From: Methanobacteriota archaeon
Lineage (GTDB): Archaea > Thermoplasmatota > E2 > DHVEG-1
Reading direction: 5' to 3'
NCBI GenBank assembly: GCA_963769885.1
Contig: CAVYNH010000007.1
Coordinates: forward strand, 64,001-128,000
DNA length: 64,000 nt
Shown here: in pieces, positions 6,406 through 25,123 of the stretch
Layout of the letters: each line of letters starts with the position of its first letter
How positions within the stretch are numbered: position 1 is the stretch's first letter
Notes under the pieces: model-generated
What the model was told of the DNA's origin: nothing
The model's input: only the letters and a program-made list of their open reading frames with translations
The model's database searches: none
Program-made: the position numbers and the translations under genes

Positions 6406-6430
6406 TTTACTATCATCCACATATTTTCAT

Positions 6431-6898
6431 TCATCGAACAATCAACACTTGTGATGAGGCATGACGAGACACCTTTTCACATACGCTCCCCAGCAATATA
6501 TGATCAAGTCCGGTCATCCCTTTACAGCCCATCACGATAAGATCATCTTTTTTCCCTTCCTTGATGATAGCCTCTTCGGGGAATCCTTCGACGAGTTTCT
6601 TACTTACGGACACACCTGCTGATTTTCCCATTTTTGCCACATCGTCAAGGACTTCTTTTCCTTGTTTTGTTAAAATGGCTTCCCATGAGAGTGACACGTC
6701 ATCATAGGGGATCGTTCTAGTTAAACGAGGAGTATCTACAACATAGAGGGCGACAATTCCCACTCCGTTTAATTTAGCCAAGGAGATCGCTTTCTTCACC
6801 GCCTTGGTTGCATAACTTGATCCATCAACAGCTACGATAATACGGTGGAAATCTTCACTGCGCTTTTTTTCAACATGCCCTTTTTTCACATCAATCAC
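6431..6898 (-). CDS. Universal stress protein (USP)
   Basis: IIVAVDGS; LIVMGCKG...LLGSV. Confidence 0.92.
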   Translation of the reverse strand: MIDVKKGHVEKKRSEDFHRIIVAVDGSSYATKAVKKAISLAKLNGVGIVALYVVDTPRLTRTIPYDDVSLSWEAILTKQGKEVLDDVAKMGKSAGVSVSKKLVEGFPEEAIIKEGKKDDLIVMGCKGMTGLDHILLGSVCEKVSRHASSQVLIVR

Positions 6899-6950
6899 CT
6901 ATTGCACTTTAGTTTTCACTACTGACAATACAAATTCCCAACAATTTCTT

Positions 6951-7057
6951 CTTTAAAAACATATCCTAAAAACCGTATACAAGACAGAGGATACTGCGTC
7001 CAAGATCCGTTTCCCTGGACATTCAAGCAGTGACACAGGATTGGGCTCGTGATTGGC
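6951..7057. repeat. R repeat 1: 27-bp TATA-like motif plus IS200-left-end-like hairpin
   Basis: CTTTAAAAACATATCC...GATACTGCGTCCAAGATCCGTTTCC...CAAGCAGTGACAC. Confidence 0.85.
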
Positions 7058-7091
7058 TGCTGAATTTGTGAATAAAAAAACCAATGATTAT

Positions 7092-7337
7092 TTATTCATC
7101 AGGATTAGAGTATTGTTTGCCAAAGTCATCTTTTTGTTTTTGTGTTTTATCAACGATCTTAGCTTTAGGGTCATCAAATTCGTTGCCACATTTCATACAT
7201 ATATATTTTGGTGTCTTTCTTCTTCTAATATAAATCTGAATACTTTCACATTTTGGGCACACTGCAATAAAATCCTTTGCTATTTGACGATATTTATCAT
7301 GTGATCGTTCAGCGAATTTATCTTTTTCTTTTATCAA
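7092..7337 (-). CDS. Small Zn-ribbon protein
   Basis: CPKC and CMKC motifs; start uncertain. Confidence 0.7.
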   Translation of the reverse strand: MIKEKDKFAERSHDKYRQIAKDFIAVCPKCESIQIYIRRRKTPKYICMKCGNEFDDPKAKIVDKTQKQKDDFGKQYSNPDE

Positions 7338-7394
7338 AATTTAATCGCCGATGTTGATATTTTTCGTATCCTTATAAAGGCATCTATATGGGTG

Positions 7395-7452
7395 GCGTCC
7401 TAAATCCGTTTCCCTTGGCGGTCAAGCAAGTAACACGGTTTTTGTGATTGGC
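7395..7452. repeat. R repeat 2 (hairpin core)
   Basis: GCGTCCTAAATCCGTTTCCCTTGGCGGTCAAGCAAGTAACACGG. Confidence 0.8.
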
Positions 7453-7545
7453 ATGCCCTGGCCATTTCATTGAAGGCTCTGTTGAATCAAGATGTGTTGA
7501 AAACATGGATTGTTGAATTATGGTTGATAAGGACAGTATACGCAT

Positions 7546-7650
7546 TCATTCATAGGAAACATGTTTTTGTTTTCTCTTTCTCCTCTGTTCCTTTCTTTCC
7601 TTCTTTGTTAAAGGCTTCGATTTCTTTTCCGGAGATATATCTTTACTCAT
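7546..7650 (-). CDS. 34-aa Lys/Arg-rich peptide
   Basis: MSKDISPEKKSKPLTKKERKEQRRKRKQKHVSYE; GGAAGGTGA RBS and TTTTTAAA TATA box upstream. Confidence 0.6.
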   Translation of the reverse strand: MSKDISPEKKSKPLTKKERKEQRRKRKQKHVSYE

Positions 7651-7746
7651 GTCACCTTCCTCCTTTTTCCAAAAACAATTCCTTCTTTAAAAACCTATAC
7701 CTCTTATATGGGTTTTTTCTGAGGCATCCACCTGACCCTTTACGGG

Positions 7747-7998
7747 CTATACTTCTATTGCATGCATCAATGCTTCTTCGGGTGTTATCTCTTTGATCCG
7801 CTCTTCTTTCACCCATCTATTGAATGTGGATTCTTCTATAGGAAATTCAAAATCCCTTTTATCATTGAAAATTCGTAGACTATAGACACCCCTATTTTTC
7901 CCTCTTTCAAACTCATATAATACTGCAAATGTGAGAGTTATTTTGTCTCTTAATTGAAATTCGTAATAATGCCCAACTTTAAGTTGTAAATTTGACAT
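7747..7998 (-). CDS. Hypothetical protein
   Basis: Open frame with protein-like composition; TATA-like motif near 8040. Confidence 0.6.
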   Translation of the reverse strand: MSNLQLKVGHYYEFQLRDKITLTFAVLYEFERGKNRGVYSLRIFNDKRDFEFPIEESTFNRWVKEERIKEITPEEALMHAIEV

Positions 7999-8072
7999 CA
8001 GATGTCTCTCTCAAATTACAAATTCAAAACATCTCTTTCTTTAAAAATCTACCCTTGTCCCTCTTCCAAGAA

Positions 8073-8172
8073 ATGAATTGCCCGGCTTTCCCCCGGAGGA
8101 AGAAAACGCCTGAGGACGTATTACGATTCAGCTCCGGGCGATTCATCCCCAAACTAAGGCATGGGGATTTCT
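8073..8172. mobile_element. Putative MITE or end of an IS605/IS1341-like element
   Basis: Inverted repeat ATGAATTGCCCGG/CCGGGCGATTCAT plus a CCCCA...TGGGG hairpin matching 49948-49979 (28/32). Confidence 0.5.
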
Positions 8173-8546
8173 TGCTTAAGGGACGCTTAAAGAAAGAATG
8201 TAAGGGATGAGGGCTGGATGAGGAGAGGGTTTATGTCCTATTAATGGGATACACTCTTAAAAAGAGGACCCATCATCCCTAGTGTCTTCTTTTCGTTGTG
8301 GTCATTGTTAGCTTGAATTTTTTTTCAAGTCCCTATCAATTTCCGATGTCAGTAATGCATAACAGTATTTAAATGTATGTACAAAATGAGTAATCATGTG
8401 CAAATTGTAATTATTTTTATTTAAGAAATCATACTTTTACTTATACATGAACACTGCCTGTGCAGCATCATTGTTATATACTAGTTAAATACTATTGTGT
8501 AGGTATATTAAAAAATAAGTAACTAATACAAGGGAGGTTGACACCT

Positions 8547-8720
8547 ATGGTGAAACGAACAACAATCAGTCTTTCAACAGAAGAAATCAAAGAATTGAGG
8601 ACGTTAGCAAAAAAAGAACATAGGCCCATTAGCCGTCAGATTGTATACATGATGGAGTACTATAAAAAAAATAGTGAGAATACCATCGTAAAAAAAACCA
8701 TTAATTACCATCCTCAGTAA
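8547..8720 (+). CDS. Ribbon-helix-helix (CopG/Arc-like) protein
   Basis: KRTTISLS...ELRTLAKKEHRPISRQI pattern; GGAGG RBS. Confidence 0.7.
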   Translation: MVKRTTISLSTEEIKELRTLAKKEHRPISRQIVYMMEYYKKNSENTIVKKTINYHPQ

Positions 8721-8893
8721 AGGGAAGAAAGAATTTCTTTGGAGAGGGTGATGAATCCTTTCTGGCTTAATTTCTTGCTCGACGTGTAAATCTGTTTTTG
8801 ACTTTTCCTCAGATGCTGGCCTATTTCGCGAATTTCAGTCGTGCCTGAAGCAAGTTCGCTGAGGATCCGGAGCTCTTTTTAAGAAAACCGCAA
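8712..8893 (-). pseudogene. Truncated winged-HTH protein fragment
   Basis: KELRILSELASGTTEIREIGQHLRKSQKQIYTSSKKLSQKGFI; 5' end disrupted. Confidence 0.45.
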
Positions 8894-8945
8894 ATTCCGA
8901 AAATATGAGAATTACTTGTATATCTTTCTCATTTTTTCGGAAATC

Positions 8946-9075
8946 TTACGCCCGCATCGAGATACTGTCACCGAGATAGCGCTATATTCATGGACTCTTC
9001 TTCTGTTGAGGATTTTTAGGTGCGAGTTTTCGAATCGTGTTTTGGTACTTGGAAACAGCCATGGAATCTGGCAAT
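8946..9075 (-). repeat. tRNA-Arg 3'-end repeat (att-like) plus type-A arm
   Basis: TTACGCCCGCATCGAGAT matches 24885-24902 at 17/18; arm shared with 10112 and 21691. Confidence 0.85.
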
Positions 9076-9330
9076 TTAGTTACTCATGTTTTACGGTAAT
9101 CGCTGTAAAAAAGAAAAGAAAAAAAAGAGGAAGGGAGGATTAAATAGTTCTTTTGTTCTGGTGAAGAACGATATCCAAACCCCTCTCCGTTCTACGTTAT
9201 TTCAGATCTTGCTATCCTATCCATCTTCCTCCTATTTAGAGTATCTTATTTTCTTTAATCTCTGATAGGAATGTTTAAGTAGTTCCTTGTATAATACATA
9301 TACATATGCAATTGCATGAGATGATGTATT

Positions 9331-9477
9331 ATGATAAGAATGACGTTTTCAATTTCTAACAACCTGAAAAAAAAACTCGATTCCAAACCGGATGTCAATT
9401 GGCCTGAAGTCTTGAAGGAAAGACTCAAGAAGAGAGTAGAACTCTTGGAAAAACTGCATGAACAAGGAGAAATTTAA
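9331..9477 (+). CDS. RHH-type antitoxin-like protein 1 (48 aa)
   Basis: MIRMTFSISNNLKKKLDSKPDVNWPEVLKE; below ORF-track size cutoff. Confidence 0.7.
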   Translation: MIRMTFSISNNLKKKLDSKPDVNWPEVLKERLKKRVELLEKLHEQGEI

Positions 9478-9478
9478 T

Positions 9479-9781
9479 ATGGCATGCATTACAATTTCTG
9501 TTGATAAAACATTTAAAAATAGACTCCATCAATTTTCCTGGATAAATTGGTCTGAAATTGCAAGAGAAGAACTGCTGAAACGATATCTCTTTGAAAAATA
9601 CATGAAAACAGGAGAACTATCCAAAGACGAGGAACGATTCTGCGACCAGATCGATTGGCACCCTGTCGATGAACTTCCGATAAAAAAAGAATTCATTAAA
9701 AAGATAGGGGAAATTCGAAAAGGAGCATCCTCAAAACCAATGAAACCGGATCAAGTCAAGCAGTGGCTTCAGGAGCTATGA
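9479..9781 (+). CDS. RHH-type antitoxin-like protein 2
   Basis: MACITISVDKTFKNRL...INWSEIAREE; overlaps toxin start. Confidence 0.75.
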   Translation: MACITISVDKTFKNRLHQFSWINWSEIAREELLKRYLFEKYMKTGELSKDEERFCDQIDWHPVDELPIKKEFIKKIGEIRKGASSKPMKPDQVKQWLQEL

Positions 9782-10053
9782 GCTTCGCCATCATTATCTC
9801 TAATGAGTTGAAGAAGACATTGGTGACGATGAAAAGGAAGGACCAAAGGATGTTTCAAATGGTGAGTAAGAAAATAGTGCAAATTGCGTCCTCGGATTCT
9901 CTTGCCATCCAACATTACAAGAATCTACGCAGCCCGTTGAACGACTATAAACGCGTTCATATAGGAAGCTATGTCCTTCTCTTCCGAGTCCAAGCAGAGC
10001 ACATCATCTTTGAAGCACTTGAACACCACGATCAAGTCTATCAAATGAAATAG
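9778..10053 (+). CDS. RelE/ParE/YafQ-family toxin
   Basis: YKNLRSPLNDYKRVHIGSYVLLF...HHDQVY. Confidence 0.85.
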   Translation: MSFAIIISNELKKTLVTMKRKDQRMFQMVSKKIVQIASSDSLAIQHYKNLRSPLNDYKRVHIGSYVLLFRVQAEHIIFEALEHHDQVYQMK

Positions 10054-10230
10054 GGACTTTGCCCCTATGACGCCTTTGCCTTTATTTCTTTTCTTTGCTG
10101 GTTTTGATTAGGATACTGTCACCGAGATAGCGCTACATTCATGTGATCTTCTTCTGTTGGGAATTTTATGGCATGGGTTTTCGAATCGTGTTTTTGTAGT
10201 TGGAAACAGTAATGGAATCTGCCAACGAAG
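10045..10230. repeat. Inverted IS200 right end fused to type-A arm
   Basis: ATGAAATAGGGACTTTGCCCCTATGAC then GATACTGTCACCGAGATAGCGCTACATTCAT; same composite at 21622. Confidence 0.8.
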
Positions 10231-10376
10231 ACGAGTTTTAAGGAAACAGGATCCACCCATTTCATTAAATGTAATTCCTCTCTCTTAGGATTATGAATCA
10301 GGCTAATTAGTACTATATAGAGTTGACGGTACAATGTCGAAATTAATTTATAGATTGGTATCTATTGAGAGAGTAG

Positions 10377-11424
10377 ATGTTCTCTCTAGAAAAAAGGTGG
10401 GAACACAATAGAAGCATGAAGGCACCGCATACTTTTATTATGTACACACGTGTCCTGAGACTTCAAGGTGCTGCAGCAACTGCCTCCGCGGTTCTCATTG
10501 GTGCTTTACTCATGGGGCAACGAGACTTTGCCTCTCTGTTCGTTCTCTTTATTTTAGGGGTTCTCGCACATATTTTCATCTTTGTTTTCAATGAGTATGT
10601 TGATGTTCAGGTCGATGCAATATCTGCTGATCTTAAGGGGAAACCTCTTGTCAGTGGCGCGGTTTCACGACGTAATGCCCTTGTAATCGCGCTGATTGTT
10701 TTGGCATTAACGTACGTGCTCAGTACCCGTCTTTTTCTCAGAATACCCTTTGTTATTCCTTACATTAGGACTCCTCTGCGGTAGTATCTATGATTTATTT
10801 GGGAAAAAAATACTTTTTGCAGATGTTTTTATTGCAGGATCTTGTTTCTTCATTGTATTATTTGGTGCGAGTACTGTCTCTATCTCGTTTACATCCTTTG
10901 TGTATCTTGTTTCGCTTGCCTGTTTCTTCCACATTTTGTTTAACAATGCTGTTGAGGGTGGATTAAAAGATATAGATCACGATGCTCTTGCTGGTGCGAA
11001 AACAACAGCAACGCGATTACAGGTGAAGATTGTTGATGGGAAACTCGTGGTGACAAAACGGTTCGCTGCGTTCGCGTACCTCTGTAAGCTCTTTTATCTC
11101 AGTTTAGTTTTTTTGGTGAGTCTCCTCCCTGAGGTTTCCTTCTGGAATTCTACCGTATCTTTTTTAGCGCAGATATTTTTGGTCTTTCTACTCGCTGTAG
11201 TTGTTGTCACTTTGTATCGGTTTTGGCATCCCCCTGAATTTAACAGGAAGCATTTAATCAAGGTATTTGGGATACATGAGATCGCAGCATATGCCCTTGG
11301 CCCTATCGTTCTCCTTCCAGTGATAGGGATCTCTTTGACTCTGCTGCTTCTTGTTCTACCAGTAGTTTGGTTTTTCCTGGTGAACCTTTGCCTTTATGGA
11401 CATCCTCTGTATCCTCAGGTGTAA
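10377..11424 (+). CDS. UbiA-family prenyltransferase (+1 frameshift near 10727, probably an artefact)
   Basis: NEYVDVQVD and KDIDHD Asp-rich motifs, KPLVSG; two ORFs join by removing one C. Confidence 0.85.
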
Positions 11425-11521
11425 ATTCAAAAGATAGATGAAATAAGAACGGATCCCTATTTTATTAGATAGAATCTCACAAAAAATTTGTAATATTTCC
11501 GAGTTTATTAGTTATATCTTA

Positions 11522-11640
11522 TACGCCCGCATCGGGACCTAGCGCTAATTCTATAGTGCCCAACAGGAGAAAATAAACTCAAAAACCAGACGGCCTTGAT
11601 CGCCAAGACTCTACAACGACGGACAGTACATAAAACTAAC
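11522..11640 (-). repeat. tRNA-Arg 3'-end repeat plus type-B arm
   Basis: TACGCCCGCATCGGGA then CCTAGCGCTAATTCTATAGTGCCCAACAGGAG, shared with 17955. Confidence 0.85.
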
Positions 11641-11757
11641 TCATTCGTAAGGTTATTGACGGTCAGAAGTTGTCCCCGTTGGACTTTGGCGTAAACATTC
11701 AACCATGGTCCGATAATCATTCAAAATTGATTGATGGCTTGAGAATTTTACAGACAT

Positions 11758-11824
11758 CACCTAGCAAAGGATACTACGTCCTAGATCCGTTTCCGTGGCT
11801 CGGTCAAGCAGTGACACGGTTTTG
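11758..11824. repeat. R repeat 3
   Basis: ACAT|CACCTAGCAAAGGATACTACGTCCTAGATCCGTTTCC...GGTCAAGCAGTGACACGG. Confidence 0.85.
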
Positions 11825-11854
11825 AATCATATTTTTTGTGTTGAAAAGTTCCAT

Positions 11855-11878
11855 GGGTTCAAATCCCTTACCCTGCAC
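11855..11878 (+). repeat. tRNA 3'-end-like fragment (probably tRNA-Leu), copy 1
   Basis: GGGTTCAAATCCCTTACCCTGCAC resembles T-arm plus acceptor strand. Confidence 0.6.
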
Positions 11879-11930
11879 TAAAAGACAAAATCAAGCTTAT
11901 TTTTAGTAAAGAAACCCATTTTATTTGCTC

Positions 11931-12717
11931 TCAATTTATTGAATGAGCCTTGGTTTTGATTTTTTCGAGTGCCAATCCATAAATCGAGATTGTGAATAAA
12001 GGTATATGAAGAATAGCCACCCAAACTGGATATCCTGAAATTATCAAGGGGCCACTCAGGTTTAGAAGACCGAAATAGACGCCTACAATGCAGAGAAAGC
12101 GGTATGCTGGTTTGTAGATATTAGGATAGGTACAAGGTCAAAATATAAATCATTACTGGTGCTGTAAAACAGAAGGCAAGTCCATATTCAGATGTCAAGA
12201 AGAGTATTGGATTAAAGTCTGGTTGTCCAAGTATCGTCATCGGAACCCAAAATGCTAAAATCGCCAAGGGCACTGCCCAAAACCTCCACTTTTCTAGCTC
12301 CACTAACGCAAATTCGTTCTCATGCTGGAAGATTGCTGGAATCCATAAGATGCCTACAAGGAGTATCTGTAACAGGTTATTGAATATAATCACAAACCCG
12401 AACTGTTGATTGACAGTTATGTTCTGTGCAAATGCTATAAACACAAAATTGACTGTAAGATACACATAAAAATATTTCACTACTTTCGTGTTGAGTTTCC
12501 AAAGAAGAATCACAAGGACTAGAGTGGCAAGATGAAAAGCGGGCGCAAGCCAAAGATATGGCGTAAGCGATTCTCTAAGGACTAGTCCCATAAGTTCTCC
12601 TACTTGCCCGTATGTCATTGGTTTGCTCGTATATGGTGGAACAAAAAGAGGGATCAGAAAAAGAAGTAAGTAGAACCACCATTTTGACGTAATCCTTCGT
12701 AGAGCAAACGGTAGCAT
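11931..12717 (-). CDS. Multi-pass membrane protein (+1 frameshift near 12130)
   Basis: Hydrophobic ORF continues as YPNIYKPAYRFLCIVG...IN* after removing one C. Confidence 0.75.
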
Positions 12718-12768
12718 GTTGTTTTAGTATGACATATTTCGTATATAAAAGCATGAATTACTGAAATA

Positions 12769-12790
12769 GGTTCAAATCCTTCCCCTGCAC
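12769..12790 (+). repeat. tRNA 3'-end-like fragment, copy 2
   Basis: GGTTCAAATCCTTCCCCTGCAC, direct repeat of 11855. Confidence 0.6.
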
Positions 12791-12791
12791 A

Positions 12792-12889
12792 TAAAAACAT
12801 ATCCTTAGAACCCGATCACCGAGCAGTAGATACTGCTTCCGAGATCCGTTTCCCTGGGCGGTCTAGCAGTGACACGATTCTATTGTGAT
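12792..12889. repeat. R repeat 4
   Basis: AAAAACATATCCTTAGAACCCGAT|CACC...GATACTGCTTCCGAGATCCGTTTCCCTGGGCGGTCTAGCAGTGACACG. Confidence 0.85.
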
Positions 12890-12934
12890 CTACTACAATA
12901 TTTTGAATAAAAAATCAAGAGATTATTTTCTTAT

Positions 12935-13633
12935 CAGTAGCGGCCGGGAATACTGCGTGGTCTGAACCGCAGTGAAGACCCGCAGATGAGAGGCCGCTCG
13001 TCGTCTTTTTCTCACAACACTCGTTACATTTTTTGTCGCGGCGGGCAGGCGTCCGCCTGCCCCTTTACCGCGCGACAGGAGTACAAAAACTTATGGAGAG
13101 TGTATCGAGCGGCAGCTCTAAAAAGGTTGCGGGTGACACCCGCAACAACTGGGTGACCATGATGTTCCCGACACACAAAAGGTACCGGAACTTCCGAAAA
13201 CAAAGCCACATCGACACCTGCACCCAGGCGTTCCACGACCTGGAACGCCTTGGGTTCGAGTTCGGCGAATTCGGATTCGCCGAAACCCATGTACATCTCC
13301 AGGTCAACGTTCCCAAGCGGTACTCCATTGAAACCGCTGAGATTATTCTCAAGTCTTACACCTCCCGGAGAATGTTCCAGGCTCACCCCGGGTTCCACAA
13401 ACGCTACCCCCGCGGGGGATTCTGGAGCGGGTACGAGCACCATGAATCCACCGGATTGACCAGCCTTGATGAATCCTCAGCCTACCTGCGCGATCAGCAA
13501 CGACATCACAACATGACTATTATCGACGACCGACAACAACGCCTGACCGCCGAGTGAGATACGGCAATGCCCAAGAGGGCTTGCCGAGGAACGAAGGCGG
13601 AACGGGGTCATAGGGGCGCAGCCCCTATTTCAT
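12935..13633 (+). mobile_element. IS200 element copy 3
   Basis: Near-identical to copy 1; inserted in the 3' end of the Zn-finger gene. Confidence 0.95.
13093..13557 (+). CDS. tnpA: Y1 HUH transposase TnpA
   Basis: Same motifs as copy 1. Confidence 0.95.
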   Translation: MESVSSGSSKKVAGDTRNNWVTMMFPTHKRYRNFRKQSHIDTCTQAFHDLERLGFEFGEFGFAETHVHLQVNVPKRYSIETAEIILKSYTSRRMFQAHPGFHKRYPRGGFWSGYEHHESTGLTSLDESSAYLRDQQRHHNMTIIDDRQQRLTAE

Positions 13634-13936
13634 TCTTGGATCGTTACACTCTGGACAATTAACATTTCCAGTACCATCGCATTCAGGGCAATCTTCGATT
13701 CTAGTACCATCACAGATTGGGCACTCTCTCTTTCCTCCACCACCGCAAGCGGAGCAAATTTTAGGTCTATCACCGTTTGGGTTATCATATGGATCCTCTC
13801 CAGTACCTTTGCAAATTATACAATCAGTCAATCCAGTACCATTACAATCAATACATTCTTCTTTTCCAGAACCGCCACATTTTGGACACACTATTGTTCC
13901 AACACCATCACAACATGAACACTTTTTTTCTGTCAT
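13625..13936 (-). CDS. DnaJ-type CxxCxGxG zinc-finger protein
   Basis: Multiple CxxCxGxG repeats; last codons supplied by the IS. Confidence 0.8.
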   Translation of the reverse strand: MTEKKCSCCDGVGTIVCPKCGGSGKEECIDCNGTGLTDCIICKGTGEDPYDNPNGDRPKICSACGGGGKRECPICDGTRIEDCPECDGTGNVNCPECNDPRMK

Positions 13937-13944
13937 AATATGTA

Positions 13945-14319
13945 CTATTTCACAACGAGTTTTTTCACTAATTCCATTACTCTGTTGTGTCGAGTTTCCT
14001 CGATTTCTAAAATACTTTTTTTCAACCAATTCCGCCAATCTTTTTTATCTTTCCATAAATGCAGAAAAACAATGGGAATATCGTTCCGTTTGTATATCTC
14101 CTCCCGATATACATAATCGAATTTATCAGATCCACAAACCTCTAAATACAAATTTAATGCAGGAAGGTAAAAATCAGGTATCCACACCCTCGGGCGTTTC
14201 TTTTCATCATAAAGGAAAACAGGCTGTTGATAATACCAATCCAAACCCATTTCATTCAAATAACCGGCGACTACAATCTCGCTTTTGTGCATGTCGTTGT
14301 AAAATTCCTTTCCTGGCAT
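13945..14319 (-). CDS. PD-(D/E)XK-superfamily endonuclease-like protein
   Basis: SE...YL...IPDFYLP...YLEVCG motif. Confidence 0.7.
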   Translation of the reverse strand: MPGKEFYNDMHKSEIVVAGYLNEMGLDWYYQQPVFLYDEKKRPRVWIPDFYLPALNLYLEVCGSDKFDYVYREEIYKRNDIPIVFLHLWKDKKDWRNWLKKSILEIEETRHNRVMELVKKLVVK

Positions 14320-14456
14320 TTATTTCTCTTCTCCTTATTATAAGTGATAAAATGTGGATTATTAACTCTTTGGGAGGTCTTGGATTTGGGCAATAAACAA
14401 ACACATGATTATTTAGTCCATGATTCAAATTATTTCTCAATACTTTTTATTCCTGC

Positions 14457-14493
14457 CCCATTTCCATGGATCGGTCAAGCAGTGACACGTTTT
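14457..14493. repeat. R repeat 5 (3' half)
   Basis: CCATTTCCATGGATCGGTCAAGCAGTGACACGTTTT. Confidence 0.75.
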
Positions 14494-14552
14494 GTAACTC
14501 ATGATTTATGTGCGAAATCAAATGATAAAAAAAAGGGAGATGGATAGGACGT

Positions 14553-16349: not shown

Positions 16350-16399
16350 GTTCCTTTCACTCCCCAAAATACAAACTTTGTAAGAGTTGATATCCTCTG

Positions 16400-16490
16400 G
16401 ATTCATTTAAATGTTTTCAGGCAATAAAATCTGCAATAAAGGAATGAATGCTTGTATTACTTCTTTAAAAACATATTCTTAGAATCTCAT
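16400..16490 (-). promoter_or_regulatory. Shared ~90-bp upstream region ending in the 27-bp motif, without hairpin
   Basis: Similar to 19891-19982; ends CTTTAAAAACATATTCTTAGAATCTCAT. Confidence 0.65.
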
Positions 16491-16596
16491 GTTTTGTGTA
16501 AATCGACGATAAAAAGATGGGATTTTTAGTACCCCAGTAGGTGTCGTAGAATTGGGAACGCATGTGGGAACAAAAAAAAGAAAAGAGGTTGGAGTA

Positions 16597-17589
16597 TTAG
16601 GTTACTCCAAGAACGTAAAACAGAAGAATTTTCCCTGTCGCTGTCTTTTCTTTATCAGATACTCTTGCGGTAATGCTGATAGGACCAAGTCCAAGGAATA
16701 GCCCTGTTGAGACTGTTTTTGGTTCTCCCATTGGGATGTCAATGGTCCCATTCGCTGTTGTATTTACTAGTCCAAGGATGCCGCCTTTCACTTGAAGCTG
16801 CCATGCAACACCAGTGGCATCTGCATCCCCGATGTTCGTGATGACTGCTTTCACTCCAATGCCTCCGGTGATGTTAATCTGATAATCGGGTTTTGGTGTA
16901 TAGGTCAGGTTGAAGGCAAGATTGTGAGCTAGGCTTGCACCATTTTGTAACGCATTGAGGTTACCTTGTGGAGATGTCATCCATAAAAACGAGCTGAGAT
17001 TTTGCGAAGCATTGCTTTGTATTGAAAGCCAACCATTTGTTAAATACACACTTGGAATAGTTGCTTCGAAATAGTACATGGGCCATCCATTATATAGCAA
17101 TCCTGTGTTTGTGTAGGTTGGTACTACATTATAAAATGGTGATGGTGGAACCACTGCACCTGGTGCACCAGCATTATTTTGGTAGAATATGATATCGAAT
17201 GTCATTCCATCTGGAACGCCTTGATACCATCCAGAATTCCAGATCCAGGTTAGTCCCCACCAGTGCACATCATCAATTGTCACATTATTTATACCCCAGA
17301 AGTCTTCTTGACATAGCCATGCCAAATTTTTCGCGGATGTATAGGCAGCCCAAGATTCATTTGGTAGATACGGCATCTGAGAAAATATTACATTTCCTCC
17401 TGACGTCGGCTGAATAATTTTTCCTGATGGTTGTAGATTACTGTTTATTCCCATAGAAGTTATTCCATTATTCGTCATAGACGCGACTGCGGGAATAGCA
17501 GTAGCTATCATCAGCATGCATACAAATATTCCAATTAGTTTTTTTTCCTCCTTCAATTTACTACTACAAACCAGGCTTGTCTTTCTCAT
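16597..17589 (-). CDS. Secreted protein
   Basis: IGIFVCMLMIA signal peptide; C-terminal GGIGV...GKILLFYV domain; start uncertain. Confidence 0.8.
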   Translation of the reverse strand: MRKTSLVCSSKLKEEKKLIGIFVCMLMIATAIPAVASMTNNGITSMGINSNLQPSGKIIQPTSGGNVIFSQMPYLPNESWAAYTSAKNLAWLCQEDFWGINNVTIDDVHWWGLTWIWNSGWYQGVPDGMTFDIIFYQNNAGAPGAVVPPSPFYNVVPTYTNTGLLYNGWPMYYFEATIPSVYLTNGWLSIQSNASQNLSSFLWMTSPQGNLNALQNGASLAHNLAFNLTYTPKPDYQINITGGIGVKAVITNIGDADATGVAWQLQVKGGILGLVNTTANGTIDIPMGEPKTVSTGLFLGLGPISITARVSDKEKTATGKILLFYVLGVT

Positions 17590-17676
17590 TCTTTTCCGTA
17601 TAAAAAGCCTGTTCCTCCTTAGCTAGTGCTATTAGTTATCATTATTTAAATGTTTGGAATAGAAAAAAATTCTTCT

Positions 17677-17761
17677 TTTTAAAAACATATCCTTAGAAAC
17701 CTATTACAAAATAGGAGATATTGCATCCTAGATTCGCTTCCCTTGGCGGTCAAGCACACGC
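17677..17761. repeat. R repeat 6
   Basis: TTTAAAAACATATCCTTAGAAACCTAT...GATATTGCATCCTAGATTCGCTTCCCTTGGCGGTCAAGCA. Confidence 0.85.
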
Positions 17762-17954
17762 ATCAATCCTTCTGAGGATTGCACACAGACCATGCAGAGC
17801 CACAATCCCCCTTGGTTGGTTGGGCATATGCGTACCAAGAAGAAGATAACGCGTCCTCGTTTTTTATCATCAATGTTAATAATTATACATGAAAAAAGAG
17901 ACGGTGGTTCACGGTCTGGAGGTGGAGGTTGGCGATGGAAAAGGAGCGTTTTTT

Positions 17955-18068
17955 CGTCCGCATCGGGACCTGGCGCTAATTCTATAGTGCCCAACAGGAG
18001 AAAACACCCTCAAAAACCAGACGGCCATGACCGTCAGAACTCTACAACGACCGGCACTACATAATACT
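17955..18068 (-). repeat. tRNA-Arg 3'-end repeat plus type-B arm
   Basis: CGTCCGCATCGGGA then CCTGGCGCTAATTCTATAGTGCCCAACAGGAG. Confidence 0.85.
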
Positions 18069-18148
18069 ATCGCTCACAACTATTCCTATTGTGAGAACCA
18101 GCCTATTTTTACCTAATACCTTTTGCATCTTGCTTTTCCCCCTTAAAC

Positions 18149-19855
18149 TTATATCAATCTATTGCAAAGAGCAATAATAAATCGTAAGCCAATCAGTCCG
18201 TGATACTCCTTTGAGATCGTGACCCTCTCCCCATGAAGATAGGTGATGAAACTGAAGGGGATGAATGTCACTACTCTGGTTTTCACCGCCTCAAACGCCG
18301 TGTACTTTCCTTGACTGGAGAGGTTGGTGATCTTGCCGAAGATGAACACTGGCTGGAACTTTTCAACCGTAATGTTCTGAGTGATACTATCTTCTGCGCC
18401 AGCATTGTCTCTCACGGTCAACGTGACATTGTATGTCCCCGAAGCTAGATAGTCATGCGTCACGATTTCTCCTATTCCTGGAGTGCCATCGCCGAAATTC
18501 CAAACCCAAGAAGAGATATTCCCATCAGGATCATAGGAGGATGATGCATTAAAGGTTACAGAAAGATTTTCAGCAGAAAAGGTGAAATTTGCTATCGGCG
18601 GTTGATTTTCACTTTTTATTTTTATCAACTAGACATCCCTTTCTCCCAATCCATATGATTTTGTGTACCCTGCAATTAGATACCCTTTATCTATGGTCTG
18701 TATTACTGACCATCCTAAATCCTCATTTGGTCCTCCTAAGGTTTCATTCCATAGTTCATCACCCATAGCATCAGTTTTTATCAACCATACATCACTACTA
18801 CCTTTACCATAGGATTCCGTATATCCTGTGATAATATATCCACCATCCAGGGCCTGTCGAACAGAATATGCACCATCATTCAGAACCCCGCCAAAGGTTT
18901 TATTCCATAGCATATTCCCGTTTGCGTCTGTTTTGATTAGCCAAGCATCGTATGAACCTGCACCAAATGAGTTTGTATATCCTGCAATAATATATCCTCC
19001 ATCGGTTGTCTGCTGACCCGATAGTGCTAATTCATCGTTTATTCCTCCAAAGGTTTTACTCCACTGTAAACTCCCATTGCTATCAGTTTTAATAAGCCAC
19101 ATATCAAGGGGTCCAGCACCAAAACCGGTAAATCCAACAATAATGTACCCGCCATCAGCGGTCCGATGAACTGAACGTGCTTGTTCATTGTCTGCTGGTC
19201 CTCCAAAGGTTCTAAACCACTGCTCATTTCCATTAGCATCTGTTTTTAGAAGCAAAACATCAGCACCACCAGCACTGTTCCAATTGGTCCATCCTGCGAT
19301 AATATAACCACCATCTATGGTTTGTTCACCACACTCTGCTGTATCCCAAAGAACCCCCCTCCACCAAATCTTATCCCATTGTGTTATACCATTACCATCT
19401 GTTTTAATCAACAGAACACCAGCAGGACCTACAGGAGTCACAAAAGTGTTCCCTATAATGATATATCCTCCATCGGTTGTCTGCTGAACCGCCCATGCTT
19501 CATCCATGTTTGCCCATCCGAAGGTTTTATTCCACTGTTCAACCCCGTTAGAATCTATTTTTAGGAGAAAAACATCAAAATCACCAGCACCAAACGAGAG
19601 AGTTTTTCCTGTGGCGATATACCCTCCATCTGATGTCTGTTGTACGGAATATGCCGAATCATCGCTTACTCCACCCCAGATAATGTTCCATTCCGCTATG
19701 GGGCCATCTAAAGGCACTGCTGTTTGAGTAGTAAAAGAGCTGAAAACCCCTCTATTTTTCGCCCTAATATCACTAACACTTGATACGACACTCGCTCCCA
19801 CCATTAAAACGATAATTCCACAAACCACGCCCTTGTTCACCCAACTCGTTTGCAT
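18149..19855 (-). pseudogene. Secreted beta-propeller (QQTxDGGYII repeats) plus PKD domain, in-frame TAG at 18629
   Basis: DV*LIK where other repeats read DVWLIK; PKD domain (WNFGDG) follows in frame. Confidence 0.8.
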
Positions 19856-19890
19856 GAAAACCGATTCCTCCTTGGCAGTTGTTATCCTAT

Positions 19891-19982
19891 AGATTCATTT
19901 AAATGTTTTCAGACGATAAAATCTGCAACAAAGGGACGAACTCTTATATTACTATTTTAAAAACATATTCTTAGAAACCAAT
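19891..19982 (-). promoter_or_regulatory. Shared upstream region with the 27-bp motif, without hairpin
   Basis: Ends TTTAAAAACATATTCTTAGAAACCAAT. Confidence 0.65.
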
Positions 19983-20011
19983 GTATTATGTTAATCGATA
20001 ACTGTACTGAA

Positions 20012-20115
20012 ATGAAATAAGGGCTTTGCCCGTATATCTTGTTTCGCCCTCGTTCCTTACATCTACGAGTCTTACGCTGTCGCTTCAGATCGCGTAATAT
20101 TCCCCGCCACTATTG
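20012..20115 (-). mobile_element. 104-bp MITE derived from the IS200 element
   Basis: Minus strand reads left end CAATAGTGGCGGGGAATA...AGATG joined to right end AGGAACGAGGGCG...CCCTTATTTCAT. Confidence 0.85.
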
Positions 20116-20235
20116 ATATAAAATAACTGGATGAAAAAAGTTTGAGTTTGAAAAGTTATTGGGATAATAATTTAAATTATGATGATATTAGAAAAATCAT
20201 CAAAGTATCCTTACAAAATTTAAAAGAGGAATAAA

Positions 20236-21615
20236 ATGAATTCAACGGAAGAACAAGACCTTGTTAAGGTATTAGGACAACTGATTTCAAAGATAAAAAA
20301 GGAGATATTCGATGTTCGTTCCAAGGGGATGATAAAGCCAGAAGAAGAATTATACTATCGTTGGAAGATAGATAAATTTCAGTATACGAAGAATGGTGTG
20401 ACGGAATCCTCCGCTCATGCAGAACCTATCATGAAAAAATCTTGGTGGAGGGCTGCTCTAATGATTGAGGAATCTATCAAAAAATCTCATGAATATTTTC
20501 TTGCTGTAGAGGTTTTAAGTAAAATTTTTCATGGAAGAAATACAATAACTCATGACCTCGATTGTTTATTAAGAAAGGTAATCTCATTGTATTTAGAAGA
20601 AACAGCATTTAATGAAACGTATTTTGATGTTCTAATTTCAAATTTTTTAAAAGAGATTAAAGAGGAACCATTAAGATATATGGCAGAAGTCGAACTCAAC
20701 GGAATAGTACTTATTCCAGAGAAGATTGAATATAAAATTGGAGATACAGATGTCGCCCTACGTCAAACTAAAATTGAAGATCTTGAAAAGGAATTTCCTG
20801 CCAATAGGATAGCTGGCCAACCTTTCTTAAGAACGCCTTCGGCAATTCTTAATTTGGAGTTTCTTGGACAAGGAGACAATGAATTACAAATAAAAATCTT
20901 GCAGACAATTGCAGTGCTTCGACTCTTCAAAGTTGGAAGCGTGAAAACCCTCTCATACTGTATGCATTCAGACTCCATCACAAATCTTATGGCCTCTACG
21001 ATTCATACTGCCGTAGATTCAGAAAGAGCTTTAGAAATAAGCCAAATCATAAATGAAGATGAACAAAAATTGAAAAGATTTTGGCAGATAATGATTAAAG
21101 CTCTGCCATCTAATTTTTACACGTTTGAAGATATAAAGATAGATTATATCACCATTGCGTACAAACGTTATTGCGATGCGTTATTGCAAAATGGTTCTAT
21201 AGAACGAAGGATCGCCAATGCAGTGATGGGTCTAGAGAGTCTTTTTCTGAAAGGTGGGGAAATCCAGGAGTTACTTTACCGCCTGAGTATAAGGGTCTCC
21301 AAAATATTCAATTATTTAGAATATGATTATTGCAAAGTAAAAGAGGTAGTAGAAGAAGCCTACAAGGTGAGGAATCTTTTTGTTCACGGCAGCTATTTGT
21401 CGTACAATGAAAAAAAGAAATTGAATAGCAAATTTGGCGATGCTAGAAAGTTGTTACTGTCACTGCTCGACTATTTACGGATATCTATACTGGTCATGAT
21501 ATTAGTCAAAATGGAGAAGGAAGAATTTCTCGATTTAATCGATGATAGCTTAGTTGACAAAGGGAAAGACAATCAATTAAATAATATCCTCAATACCGCT
21601 AGAAATGTTATCTAA
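20236..21615 (+). CDS. HEPN-domain protein (ApeA/Apea-like C-terminus)
   Basis: GLESLF...ELLYRLSIRV...AYKVRNLFVHG (RxxxxH). Confidence 0.75.
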   Translation: MNSTEEQDLVKVLGQLISKIKKEIFDVRSKGMIKPEEELYYRWKIDKFQYTKNGVTESSAHAEPIMKKSWWRAALMIEESIKKSHEYFLAVEVLSKIFHGRNTITHDLDCLLRKVISLYLEETAFNETYFDVLISNFLKEIKEEPLRYMAEVELNGIVLIPEKIEYKIGDTDVALRQTKIEDLEKEFPANRIAGQPFLRTPSAILNLEFLGQGDNELQIKILQTIAVLRLFKVGSVKTLSYCMHSDSITNLMASTIHTAVDSERALEISQIINEDEQKLKRFWQIMIKALPSNFYTFEDIKIDYITIAYKRYCDALLQNGSIERRIANAVMGLESLFLKGGEIQELLYRLSIRVSKIFNYLEYDYCKVKEVVEEAYKVRNLFVHGSYLSYNEKKKLNSKFGDARKLLLSLLDYLRISILVMILVKMEKEEFLDLIDDSLVDKGKDNQLNNILNTARNVI

Positions 21616-21621
21616 GTAACA

Positions 21622-21812
21622 ATGAAATAGGGGCTTTGCCCCTATCACCCCATTCCGCCTTTATACCTTTCCTCTGCTGGTCCTTCTCGGGATACTGTCA
21701 CCGAGATAGCGCTACATTCATGGACTCTTCTTCTGTTGTGGATTTTTAGGTGTGGATTTTCGAATCGTGTTTTTGTACTATGAAACAGCCAATGAATCTG
21801 TCAACGAAGATT
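21622..21812. repeat. Inverted IS200 right end fused to type-A arm
   Basis: ATGAAATAGGGGCTTTGCCCCTATCACCCCATTCCGCCTT then TCGGGATACTGTCACCGAGATAGCGC. Confidence 0.85.
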
Positions 21813-21915
21813 TGATAACAGAAAAGGCCTAGTTCATAATTCTACCAGGAGAGAACACGTAGCATAAAAATGGGAATTATGAATCAAGCCCAGACAAAAA
21901 GAAAGAAAAAGAGAT

Positions 21916-21972
21916 TTACTTCTTTTTCTTTGTTGTTTTCTTCTTCGTTGCTTTTTTTGTTTTTGTAGCCAT
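21916..21972 (-). CDS. 18-aa lysine-rich micropeptide
   Basis: MATKTKKATKKKTTKKKK with GAGGAG RBS. Confidence 0.5.
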   Translation of the reverse strand: MATKTKKATKKKTTKKKK

Positions 21973-22087
21973 GATTTTTTTCATCTCCTCTTCTAAACTT
22001 ATGAATGGAGAGATTGATTAAATACTTTGTTCAATTATTTGTTAAAATTTCTATGAAAATAGCCAACAAAAAGGATATGGGGCAATA

Positions 22088-22468
22088 TTATCTATTTTTG
22101 ATGATATTTTTAAGTGCCGATATATCATTTTTAATGCTTTTAACTTCTTTTAATTTTTCCTGTTCGAAGGCTTTTAATATTTCAGATAAATCCGTGGTGG
22201 TTTTATAGATATGAACTGGTCTGCCTTTCCCCTCCTTTTTAAGATCCCGCTTTTTTACCCATCCTCTTCTGCGTAGTTCCTGCATCGCTATGCTCACCTC
22301 AGGTTGACGCATATCTGTCCCCTGTTCAACATCAGCAAATTTATATTCATCAAATCGTGAAGCGTATAATAACGTTTTAGCAAGATTTTTCGGCATCCCT
22401 AACCTAACGAATAATTGAATAGCTTTACCATCATCGGTGTCTAACATATACACATTTTTTTGTTTCAT
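22088..22468 (-). CDS. Archaeal winged-HTH transcriptional regulator
   Basis: MRQPEVSIAMQELRRRGWV...GKGRPVHIY. Confidence 0.85.
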   Translation of the reverse strand: MKQKNVYMLDTDDGKAIQLFVRLGMPKNLAKTLLYASRFDEYKFADVEQGTDMRQPEVSIAMQELRRRGWVKKRDLKKEGKGRPVHIYKTTTDLSEILKAFEQEKLKEVKSIKNDISALKNIIKNR

Positions 22469-22684
22469 ATTTTCCACCTCCTCATATTTCATACCATATA
22501 ACATTTAATCACTTATAAGACCAGCCATCAATTGAAAACAAGGAACCATTCATATACAAAGATGCGAAAAAACAGATTCCACAGCCAGCATACTATGAGA
22601 GTATCATTTTAATAGAAATACTTGTTCTTTGTTTTGCCACCTAGAAACTGTGACACTTCACTATTTAACGGAAAGTGATACTAT

Positions 22685-23236
22685 ATGATAGAAATAAAAG
22701 TACAAAATATTGTAGCATCTACATCTTTTGCAGATAAGTTAGATCTTGATGTGATAGCACAATCATTGAAAGAAGCTGAATATGAGCCAGAGCAGTTTCC
22801 TGGGCTCGTGTATCGGTTGAGTAGTCCGAAAACCGCTACCCTTCTATTTAGAAGTGGGAAGGCGAACTGTACTGGTGCAAAGAATATTGAAGACGTCAAA
22901 ACCACTATTAATATCATTGCGGAAAAACTGAAGATGCTGGGTGTTGAGGTCTATAAAGACTTTGGGATCGTCATTCAGAATATTGTAGCCACAGCTGATC
23001 TTGGGGGAGATCTTAATCTTAGCGAAGTAGCTATATCTCTTGGTTTAGAAAATGTGGAATATGAACCTGAGCAGTTCCCCGGACTGGTCTATAGGATAAA
23101 AGAACCTAGGGTAGCTATGCTTTTGTTCGGTTCTGGCAAAATAGTCTGTGCAGGTGCAAGAAAGATGGAAGATGTGTCATTAGCAGTTGATAAATTATCA
23201 AAAGAGCTCACGTCATTGGGGCTTCTCCATAAGTAA
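22685..23236 (+). CDS. tbp: TATA-box-binding protein
   Basis: Two NIVA...YEPEQFPGLVYR...F.SGK repeats. Confidence 0.97.
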   Translation: MIEIKVQNIVASTSFADKLDLDVIAQSLKEAEYEPEQFPGLVYRLSSPKTATLLFRSGKANCTGAKNIEDVKTTINIIAEKLKMLGVEVYKDFGIVIQNIVATADLGGDLNLSEVAISLGLENVEYEPEQFPGLVYRIKEPRVAMLLFGSGKIVCAGARKMEDVSLAVDKLSKELTSLGLLHK

Positions 23237-23382
23237 AACCTCTCTCGTAATATATGGGGCAACGAAAAAAACCAATCTGTTAACGTGAGAGACGTTCTTT
23301 TCCATAAGAAAATCCTCAAAACTCCTACGAACGAGTATTTATATTACTCAACTGATAAGTTAGAGAATATCAGGGATTTGTT

Positions 23383-24319
23383 TTGGTTAAAAAAGAAAAA
23401 CAGAAAATAGAAGAAATCGTTCAATGCCCTGAATGTGGGAGTACCCATCTCAGTAAAGATTACTCTCGGGCGGAATTAGTTTGTAGAAATTGCGGACTTA
23501 TTCTTGATGAGGATATCATTGACCATGGCCCAGAATGGCGTGCATTTGATAGCGAACAGCGGGAAAAACGAGCTCGAACTGGAGCACCAATGACGTACAC
23601 CATTCATGATAAAGGACTCAGTACCGATGATAGGATGGAAAAACAGAGATTCCTATGGGAAGTCAATTCCAACGAGAAATAGAGCACAAATCTATCGTTT
23701 GAGAAAATGGGCACGGCGCATTCGGATTAGCAATTCAACAGAGAGAAACCTTGCTATTGCATTTTCTGAGCTTGACAGAATGGCATCAGGCATGGGCCTC
23801 CCAAGAACGGTAAGAGAGACCGCTGCTATGATTTATAGAAAAGCAGCATTGAAAAAATTGGTCCGTGGTAGAAGCATAGAAGGTGTTACCACCGCAGCAT
23901 TGTATGCAGCATGCCGGCAGTGCCATGTGCCACGTACACTTGATGAAATAAGTAACATAGCACATATATCCAGGAAAGAGATCGGAAGGACCTACAGATA
24001 TGTCTCTCGTGAATTAGGATTAAAATTGTTGCCGACGTCACCAGAGGATTATATTTCAAGGTTCTGCAGTGAACTGAAATGTAGTGGCGATGTACGAGCG
24101 AAGACCTTGGAGATCTTACAAGAAGCTGCACACCGAGAACTTACTAGTGGACGTGGCCCAACTGGTATGGCAGCAGCCTCTCTTTATATTGCATCGGTAC
24201 TTTGTGGTGAACGGAGAACACAACACGAGGTAGCAGAAGTCGCAGGCGTCACCGAGGTTACTATTCGAAATCGCTACAAGGAACTCACAAATAAACTAGA
24301 TATAGGCATTGCCCTGTAA
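23383..24319 (+). CDS. tfb: TFB paralog 2 (+1 frameshift near 23625, probably an artefact)
   Basis: Zn ribbon and GPEWRAF in the first ORF, cyclin repeats in the second; HDKGLSTMIGW restored by removing one C. Confidence 0.93.
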
Positions 24320-24338
24320 GTTTCATCGTTTGCCCTAT

Positions 24339-24668
24339 TTATTCTTCTTTTTTAGTTGTTAAAATTATTTCTATTGAAGACACATTGGAGATTCTGCCTT
24401 CTTCATTGGTAACACTTTCAGTACCGATTTTTATTTCTTTAATTTTTGCGTCTTTGATAAATCTGTTTCTCACGATTTCTGCAGCATCTACCGCTGTACT
24501 AATCGCCCTGCCTCTCGCTTTAATAATAACCTCATCCGAACCACTAGTGTTAAATTGTGTTACTATTGCAAGCACATAGCTCATCGGAGGTTTGTGTCCA
24601 ACATAGATTACGTTTTCATCTGGTCTTCTTTTTTCAGCTGTTCCCGCTTCTGTTGTTTCTTCTACCAT
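24339..24668 (-). CDS. albA: DNA/RNA-binding protein Alba
   Basis: [14 protein letters not shown]...[12 protein letters not shown]...VSSIEI. Confidence 0.95.
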
Positions 24669-24710
24669 AATTTTTTCCCGCTCAAACCTACAATTTAATA
24701 ACATCTCATT

Positions 24711-24785
24711 CTTTAATAACATACCCTGAGAAACCCATCACATAGCAGGGAATACTGCGTCCTAGGCCCGTTTCCGCGGCTCCGT
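24711..24785. repeat. R repeat 7
   Basis: CTTTAATAACATACCCTGAGAAACCCAT|CACATAGCAGGGAATACTGCGTCCTAGGCCCGTTTCC. Confidence 0.8.
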
Positions 24786-24819
24786 TTTCAACAAAAAAGG
24801 ATTAATCATGATTCTACAT

Positions 24820-24864
24820 GTCTACACCACAGTTCGAACCACGCAGTATTCCTAGCCGCTATTG
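24820..24864 (-). mobile_element. Isolated IS200 left end
   Basis: Minus strand TTAT|CAATAGCGGCTAGGAATACTGCGTGGTTCGAAC. Confidence 0.8.
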
Positions 24865-24887
24865 ATAAAAATGTCACACTAGATTTA

Positions 24888-24961
24888 CGCCCGCATCGGG
24901 ATTCGAACCCGAGTCTTAGGCTCCGCAGGCCCATAGGATGTCCAAGCTACCCCATGCGGGC
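24888..24961 (-). tRNA. tRNA-Arg(GCG)
   Basis: GCCCGCA/TGCGGGC acceptor stem, CTGCGGA anticodon loop, GGTTCGAATCC T-arm. Confidence 0.95.
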
Positions 24962-25123
24962 AAGACGCACCCTTCGCAGCCGATTTTAGCGTCAAGTCAG
25001 GGACCTTTCTTGACAAATCGGTGACGGAGAGTTTTCTGTGCAGTAATCATATATCATATTATAAGCCTTGGGAGGTCTCTCGCAGACTTCGTTCTGCTCG
25101 GCACGAACGCTTCGAACAACCCC

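Follow-up and report, generated by a model that had tools for sequence, protein, structure and literature searches.

A short repeat resembling gene-less IS200/IS605 derivatives in the shared gene spacers of an archaeal low-GC island

We analyzed a 64,000-nucleotide (nt) stretch of DNA, referred to as the window (positions 64001 to 128000 of contig C7 in a 7-contig, 2.09-Mb assembly, G000), from an uncultured Thermoplasmatota-type archaeon. A repeat of ~100 nt that recurs in a low-GC island of this window comprises two of the three parts of an intergenic junction, L-R1-R2. On balance, we favor the reading that the middle part, R1, is a non-autonomous element of the IS200/IS605 type, which would have lodged in a shared spacer directly after the CAT that closes L and now is decaying. 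R1 is likened here to the palindrome-associated transposable elements (PATEs), gene-less IS200/IS605 derivatives first described in Haloquadratum walsbyi (PMC3119063), because it shares the left-end layout of a resident insertion sequence (IS), has no inverted ends and shows no clear target duplication.

A three-part junction with filled and empty states

L is 27-30 nt long and consists of an A/T box followed by ~20 conserved bases with CAT at the 3´ end. R1 (~72 nt) begins right after this CAT and has TCAT at its own 3´ end, and R2 (~28 nt) ends in an A-run on the plus strand, corresponding to a T-run on the minus strand. L and R2 can also meet without R1 between them, in the window at 16461-16516, upstream of a minus-strand beta-propeller gene (14553-16406), and at 19953-20002, where L meets an R2-like piece upstream of a minus-strand 408-aa open reading frame (ORF; 18629-19855). 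Both of these empty junctions were found by the search for L together with alignment and read on the plus strand; two more are present in the single congeneric comparison genome, G001, at C54:14008 and C54:19305 (upstream of Alba). R2 likewise follows the intact 3´ end of R1, in the copy at 14457, in the partial copies at C1:45790 and C1:47770, and in G001 at C54:18004, C15:100745 and C15:96520. Because L and R2 occur directly joined as well as separated by R1, R1 is an insert at a fixed point of an L-R2 spacer.

The spacer formed by L and R2 is ~58 nt long. Read on the minus strand, it presents a T-run after one gene and then the A/T box, which lies 25-115 nt from candidate start codons of the next minus-strand gene; from this position, L and R2 are a putative terminator-plus-promoter-like spacer common to unrelated, co-oriented accessory genes. 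A search for L allowing five or fewer mismatches in 24 nt gave 11 matches in the genome, compared to 0 in a reversed-sequence control. Six of these are in the island and most others fall in low-GC patches.

A profile built from the repeat copies and searched against the assembly returned eight matches, all on the plus strand (E values from 1.6e-25 to 2.8e-9), starting at 5560, 6952, 7365, 11739, 12791, 14419, 17678 and 24712 and spanning 5560-24802 (~19 kb). The next-best match in the whole assembly, on contig C1, has an E value of 0.003, and the profile search detected no copy in the window between 25 and 64 kb. A preliminary description of this DNA had listed seven copies in one orientation and had not seen the repeat in the core half; the profile recovered all seven and added an eighth near 5600. 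Its written consensus fits just one copy at three or fewer mismatches because the copies have diverged (43-82% identity, mean 64%), though the repeat itself is real. The clustering it had proposed to look for is present within these 19 kb, with only fragments elsewhere in the assembly; fragments of the three-part module were found on contigs C1, C4 and C6.

Beyond the assembly, a covariance model detected three further copies in G001, the only same-genus genome, and none in the other 59 relatives among 60 family- and class-level genomes scanned. R1-like ends were absent from 80 loci with relatives of the resident IS transposase, a metagenome scan with the two-block pattern of R1 yielded eight loci of which none fits the R1 model, and two scans of viral contigs, with L and with the 3´ part of R1, gave chance matches alone.

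The same arrangement could in principle have arisen with no mobility at all, if segmental duplication and gene conversion inside the island had multiplied one ancestral L-R1-R2 upstream region together with genes, and the empty sites were deletions. The copies are all clustered and diverged, and for the two L-bearing genes with starts near 16400 and 19850 the similarity extends over a further ~60 nt upstream, suggestive of a duplication. However, the genes flanking the copies mostly are unrelated, fragments of the module are found on three other contigs, and deletions would not be expected to take out precisely the same 72 nt, leaving CAT-R2, at four sites in two genomes. We consider this history very unlikely.

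The individual junctions differ in how much of the module they retain, and three of the eight R1 copies are truncated. Coordinates of the parts were taken from alignments and BLAST rows, and the R1 ends at 7049 and 12888 are approximate; the parts are on the plus strand and the flanking genes on the minus strand. The leftmost junction, identified by the profile and by alignments, has a degenerate L box (5560-5586) ahead of R1 copy 1 (5587-5654), which ends in the heptamer that also closes the right end of the resident IS, IS#1. Genome comparison places an older copy of IS#1 (87.6% identity) 58 nt to the right, at 5713-6406 on the plus strand. The L box at 6949-6978 (L search) lies upstream of a USP gene (6431-6898; Pfam) and leads into R1 copy 2 (6979-7049; profile and G001 alignment), in which the inner stem is broken and which has an orthologue on G001 contig C15. 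A degenerate L box (7358-7383; alignments) upstream of a Zn-ribbon gene (7092-7337; Pfam) is followed by copy 3 (7384-7471; G001 alignment), composed of R1 (7384-7440) and a tail of 31 nt that contains a small palindrome and terminates like an IS right end. An L-like remnant (11741-11757; alignments) upstream of a 70-aa ORF (11508-11720) precedes copy 4 (11758-11830), which is full length with the TCAT end and, by alignment, 92% identical to a copy on G001 contig C54.

The next L box (12790-12816; L search), upstream of a 198-aa ORF (12121-12717), directly abuts a tRNA-like 3´ fragment (12769-12790) comprising the T-loop and acceptor of a tRNA other than tRNA-Arg. It is followed by R1 copy 5 (12817-12888), the closest to the consensus by profile and consensus scan, and, 46 nt further right, by the young IS#1 copy used as reference (12935-13634, plus strand; Pfam and genome comparison), which carries the Y1 HUH transposase gene. 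Copy 6 (14456-14534; alignments) lacks the 5´ half of R1, retains 14456-14502 with the TCAT end and continues into R2 (14503-14534). An L box that matches the consensus perfectly (17675-17704; L search) lies upstream of a 330-aa ORF (16597-17589), and R1 copy 7 behind it (17705-17756; alignments) lacks the 3´ part. The last L box (24709-24738), upstream of an Alba gene (Pfam), precedes R1 copy 8 (24739-24784; alignments and motif scan), which also lacks the 3´ part and is the sole copy with the guide tetranucleotide of the IS type. The left-end profile detected an IS#1-type left-end fragment on the minus strand at 24838-24868, 19 nt downstream of tRNA-Arg. In the preliminary description, six copies were placed upstream of unrelated minus-strand genes; the USP, Zn-ribbon and Alba assignments are supported by Pfam, while the labels "nuclease", "membrane" and "secreted" found no Pfam support.

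Likeness of R1 to a resident IS200-type element

IS#1 is a 700-bp IS200-type element with four copies in the window and nine in the genome, seven of them 98-100% identical. It encodes a 174-aa protein with a Y1 transposase domain and the HUH motif, whose nearest relatives are found in Thermoplasmatota metagenome-assembled genomes, inserts after TTAT, and has a right end consisting of a hairpin and then a fixed heptamer. With its near-identical copies, intact transposase and miniatures that retain left and right ends (on contig C4), IS#1 is an active candidate for the partner of R1. Another gene-less miniature (right end plus left end; 19990-20125, minus strand) lies directly beside the empty junction at 19953-20002, and an R1 fragment on the minus strand at C7:179552-179569 is 265 nt from a further IS copy.

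In other archaea, elements of this IS family have at their left end a nested hairpin that is strongly conserved and leads into a T-run. In a set of 40 such left ends, 32 of the 36 that could be anchored at the hairpin foot carry AATA directly 5´ of the foot, and TTAT is found 13-14 nt upstream in 26 of these 32, giving the layout TTAT, cut, 13-14 nt, AATA and CTGCG foot. Guide and target change together in two relatives, to AATG with TTAC (L088) and to AATT with TTAA (L096); this guide-and-target logic is known from IS608 (PMC5027513). Six of ten R1 copies have the comparable layout NNAT, cut, 12 nt, GATA and a hairpin with the CTGC/GCAG foot of the IS. The first guide base is A in the IS, for a target starting with T, and G in R1, for a target mostly starting with C: the R1 flank mostly is C-AT, with the predicted CTAT exact at one copy. 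The ends of R1 are not reverse complements, such that there are no inverted termini, and the copies have a single orientation. There also is no clear target duplication, as only CAT recurs at both junctions, which formally could represent a duplication of 3 nt.

The foot of the repeat had been described as mirroring the IS left end. The layout of cut site, guide and hairpin foot bears this out, but the match is not significant by profile search. As judged from the sequences, the likeness between R1 and the IS is one of short motif and layout, not demonstrable homology.

The IS#1 copies at 5713-6406 and 12935-13634 have the same orientation as the R1 copies that they follow at 58 and 46 nt. These two insertions are independent, as the spacer sequences differ, and, by simple arithmetic with nine IS starts in 2.09 Mb, the chance of finding two IS starts that close to R1 is ~2 in a million. 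This improbable proximity hints that the same enzyme may be drawn to these junctions. A second IS200-type element of 617 bp, with two identical copies (C1:45113-45729 and C6, ~39.3-39.9 kb) and a canonical Y1 transposase (98 bits), was rejected as the parent of R1 on the grounds of unrelated ends. The Y1 genes of the genome sit in the nine copies of IS#1 and the two of this element. A fragment of its left-end hairpin lies at 8138-8178 in the window and is also found next to tRNA-Arg in G001.

In the mechanism that we propose, R1 would have been moved as single-stranded DNA by a Y1 HUH transposase (TnpA) supplied in trans, which would have cut after a flanking tetranucleotide matching the guide. 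Insertion at one fixed point of the L-R2 spacer, directly after CAT, would then have given rise to filled and empty spacers, and the R1 copies now would be immobile and not under selection. The shared orientation of the R1 copies could be explained because the target spacers are all co-oriented; the array-like look of the locus stems from these spacers, not from R1.

Several observations weigh against this mechanism. Every R1 follows an L-like box, while a 4-nt target would occur thousands of times. A 4-nt target therefore cannot explain the presence of L, which calls either for recognition of more than 4 nt or for the spread of L-R1-R2 as one unit by duplication or recombination; alternatively, one mobile repeat may have inserted into another, an arrangement that is common in Haloquadratum (PMC3119063). 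The predicted target agrees with the R1 guide at positions 1, 3 and 4 only. The profile of 40 IS left ends, which recovers all IS copies and fragments of the genome, misses R1 (best E value 0.98, for the copy beside the tRNA), and the right-end hairpin of the IS has no counterpart in R1. The R1 hairpin is no more stable than shuffled sequence and is without covariation, and the suggested promoter and terminator roles of L and R2 are assigned from position only. Finally, neither G000 nor G001 has a clean orthologous pair of filled and empty sites or near-identical copies, so that the mobility of R1 is inferred; near-identical copies and strain-specific insertions, the signs by which transposition is recognized for PATEs, were not found for R1.

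If R1 was mobile in this way, the gene-less IS200/IS605 derivatives gain a further family, here in an uncultured Thermoplasmatota-type archaeon. Targeting of one position in one type of spacer would call for recognition beyond four bases or for spread of the whole junction. The joint difference in guide and flank between the IS (AATA/TTAT) and the mini-element (GATA/mostly C-AT) would extend the IS608 guide rule to an archaeal lineage.

Hairpin, conservation and gene-content turnover

The consensus accommodates a 10-pair bulged hairpin, as had been proposed for the repeat, and 84.5% of cells across 11 sequences are paired, but neither fold energy nor covariation lends it support. Fold z-scores for R1 as single-stranded DNA range from -1.5 to +0.4, compared to -3.4 for the resident IS left end. 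The compensatory changes that had been suggested as a check amount to a single pair altered on both sides, from C-G to A-T in one G001 copy, a number that shuffled alignments reach as often.

These results also bear on the idea that R1 is a small RNA gene or a cis-regulatory piece, with a transcript of ~65 nt per copy. As this idea would have it, the plus-strand A/T box of L precedes the start of R1 by ~27 nt, and a T-run closes most copies. Against it stand the missing covariation and fold-energy signal, the three truncated copies and the empty spacers, which keep L without an RNA-like insert. An Rfam search matched tRNA alone, and R1 is the least conserved part of the junction between orthologues. 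We regard an RNA or regulatory role as highly improbable.

In orthologous blocks of G000 and G001, R1 is 77% and 78% identical, compared to 83-89% for L, 86% for R2 and 92% for the Zn-ribbon gene. On this sequence comparison, the R1 copies read as relics that are about neutral rather than as sites in use.

Three copies are shared with G001, and all three coincide with breaks in gene order. The block at 6944-7698 (L-R1, Zn-ribbon gene, L-R1 and the next ORF) is 87% identical in G001, where it lies in a different island of 5.3 kb (C15:96440-101758), set between core genes that in G000 are direct neighbors (C7:155.7-155.9 kb). To its left, the block has the USP gene in G000 compared to a glycoside-hydrolase-like gene in G001; after its second R1 come 31 nt in G000 compared to 715 nt with a small gene in G001, both ending in the IS-type heptamer. 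The G001 island has a 16-bp imperfect direct repeat at its flanks, starts near a 5´-truncated R1 and ends exactly in an L box; its two large genes are glycoside-hydrolase-like and it contains no recombinase, which excludes a casposon or an integrase there. The copy at 11758-11830 has different neighbors on both sides in G001 (C54:18004). The TBP-TFB-Alba block (21680-24738) is 95% identical in G001, and the match stops exactly after the CAT of L, at the last base of the box. Other breaks between the two genomes fall inside L (7694) or inside R1 (7440). The gene-order shuffling at repeat boundaries that had been put forward for checking is thus seen in part: content differs at the junctions, but breaks also lie within L and R1. 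Site-specific exchange and ordinary recombination among repeats are not separable from two genomes.

Two further features of this comparison were noted. A 3.1-kb low-GC block (21621-24868), made up of the TBP, Alba and ScpB-like genes and a TFB gene that is short at the N-terminal end, has another context in G001 and in G000 is bounded by a minus-strand IS right end (21621-21661) and the IS left-end fragment at 24838-24868. At C6:425560-425960, a ~400-nt AT-rich stretch upstream of a hypA-like gene contains, in opposite orientation, an L box joined with the 3´ portion of R1 and an R2-like piece; this stretch is missing from the corresponding place in G001.

The turnover at shared copies is an argument for the array that the preliminary description had proposed, integron-like or REP-like (repetitive extragenic palindrome), in which a TnpA moves single-gene cassettes. 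In this model, a HUH transposase would use successive R1 sites as left-end-type cuts and move R1-R2-gene-L units, building an integron-like array of promoter-equipped cassettes. The coincidence of junctions with gene-order breaks at all three shared copies fits this model, as do the location of the 6944-7698 block in a different island in G001 and the often single-gene-sized spacing between copies (405-1628 nt), and the chemistry of two left-end cuts is conceivable. However, R1 has its own start after CAT and its own end at TCAT and behaves as a simple insertion in otherwise intact spacers, seen both filled and empty. The genes between copies lack a right-end partner, there being no right-end hairpin per cassette, and the copies are old, truncated and about neutral, with no hairpin covariation. 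Breakpoints inside L and R1 are what ordinary recombination between repeats predicts, and the IS copies are young, yet no R1-bounded unit is duplicated. A REP-like array likewise is unsupported, with eight clustered copies instead of hundreds and no RAYT-type setting. L was considered as a right end of cassette transposons and rejected, as reading its sequence revealed no hairpin with the IS foot.

With the present evidence mostly against the cassette reading, we consider such an array very improbable. Its most specific version, in which TnpA would cut after CAT at two successive R1 copies and single-stranded R1-R2-gene-L circles would re-insert after another CAT, is more doubtful still. If true, it would be an integron analogue run by an IS200-family transposase that delivers genes with their own promoter, and a new way of gene collecting.

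The tRNA-Arg border and comparison with known systems

The G+C content is 35-45% in the window from 5.5 to 24.8 kb compared to 55-66% across the rest, and the low-GC island ends at a tRNA-Arg(GCG) gene on the minus strand (24887-24962; tRNA/Rfam search and composition). Genes of archaeal type in the window encode TFB, TBP, Alba and a Hel308-type helicase; an exact-protein look-up with the island TBP gave no match. Short copies of the tRNA-Arg 3´ end lie within the island at 8948-8959 and 11523-11537 and also are present in G001. Together with the fragment of another tRNA abutting the L box at 12790, they resemble scars left by successive integration events at tRNA genes.

This setting raises the alternative that the L-R1-R2 junctions are scars or sites of a tyrosine recombinase stacking integrative elements at tRNA-Arg, with R1 as part of an attachment-type site. 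Such an origin could account for an island that abuts tRNA-Arg and contains copies of its 3´ end, and for a G001 island that has 16-bp direct repeats and ends in L; the genome as a whole has eight tyrosine-recombinase matches (PF00589). None of these is in the window, in agreement with the preliminary description, which had seen no tyrosine integrase there, and the nearest lies ~39 kb past the window end. Reading of the junctions also revealed no convincing dyad with a 6-8-nt spacer, and the tRNA-end fragments adjoin repeats of another family rather than R1. A tRNA-derived attachment site was excluded, as R1 shares nothing with tRNA-Arg. We judge a tyrosine-recombinase origin unlikely.

The island is repeat-rich beyond R1, with IS ends, tRNA 3´-end fragments and a 150-nt repeat (8961-9070, 10111-10231 and, on the minus strand, 21662-21810) that runs at its end into a 3´ fragment of tRNA-Arg or into the right end of an IS; at least two copies of this repeat also are found in G001. 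The region of 9763-10053 and 10377-11424 contains a ParE-like toxin ORF with a small ORF upstream, and a UbiA prenyltransferase gene present as two overlapping ORFs, probably due to a frameshift. Elsewhere, the stretch at 60000-64000 has an extreme strand asymmetry (GC skew -0.54 to -0.63 at 62-66% G+C) and a highly repetitive C/A-rich coding sequence on the plus strand.

The locus resembles integrons, including those of archaea (Ghaly et al., 2022; PMC9668308), in that co-oriented accessory genes are split by a recurring, putatively folded site and gene content differs between relatives. However, there is no IntI or other tyrosine recombinase near the R1 array, and R1, accompanied by a promoter-like box, is found 5´ of each gene, whereas attC is at the 3´ end of a mostly promoterless cassette. 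R1 also is inserted into a spacer instead of forming a hybrid recombination site and has no supported attC-type structure of paired arms.

REPs are scattered in tens to hundreds of copies, frequently paired in inverted orientation around a RAYT gene that itself is single-copy. R1 is similar to REPs, bacterial interspersed mosaic elements (BIMEs) and their RAYT partners in having a single short putative hairpin after a conserved tetranucleotide and a presumed Y1 HUH partner. It differs in its eight clustered, co-oriented copies, and the Y1 genes here are in multi-copy IS elements.

R1 resembles the IS200 group, for which IS608 and ISDra2 (PMC5027513) are the mechanistic models, in that it is inserted on the 3´ side of a specific stretch of four or five nucleotides, in that its guide tetranucleotide directly precedes a putative hairpin close to the end, and in its specificity for strand and orientation; a resident 700-bp member, with nine copies, encodes an intact Y1 HUH TnpA. 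In contrast to that member, R1 is gene-less and without the right-end hairpin, and its recognition by TnpA is putative.

The closest likeness is to PATEs, from which R1 differs in number and distribution (eight copies only, confined to a single 19-kb island and each placed identically within one type of spacer), in having one putative hairpin where PATEs have one per end, and in a likeness to the partner IS that is limited to the guide-plus-foot motif, with no strain-specific insertion seen. In common with PATEs, R1 is too short to encode a transposase and has no inverted terminal repeats or clear target duplication, carries a candidate palindrome near its end and a short fixed oligonucleotide flanking the 5´ junction, and is found as heterogeneous, often truncated copies inside another repeated unit.

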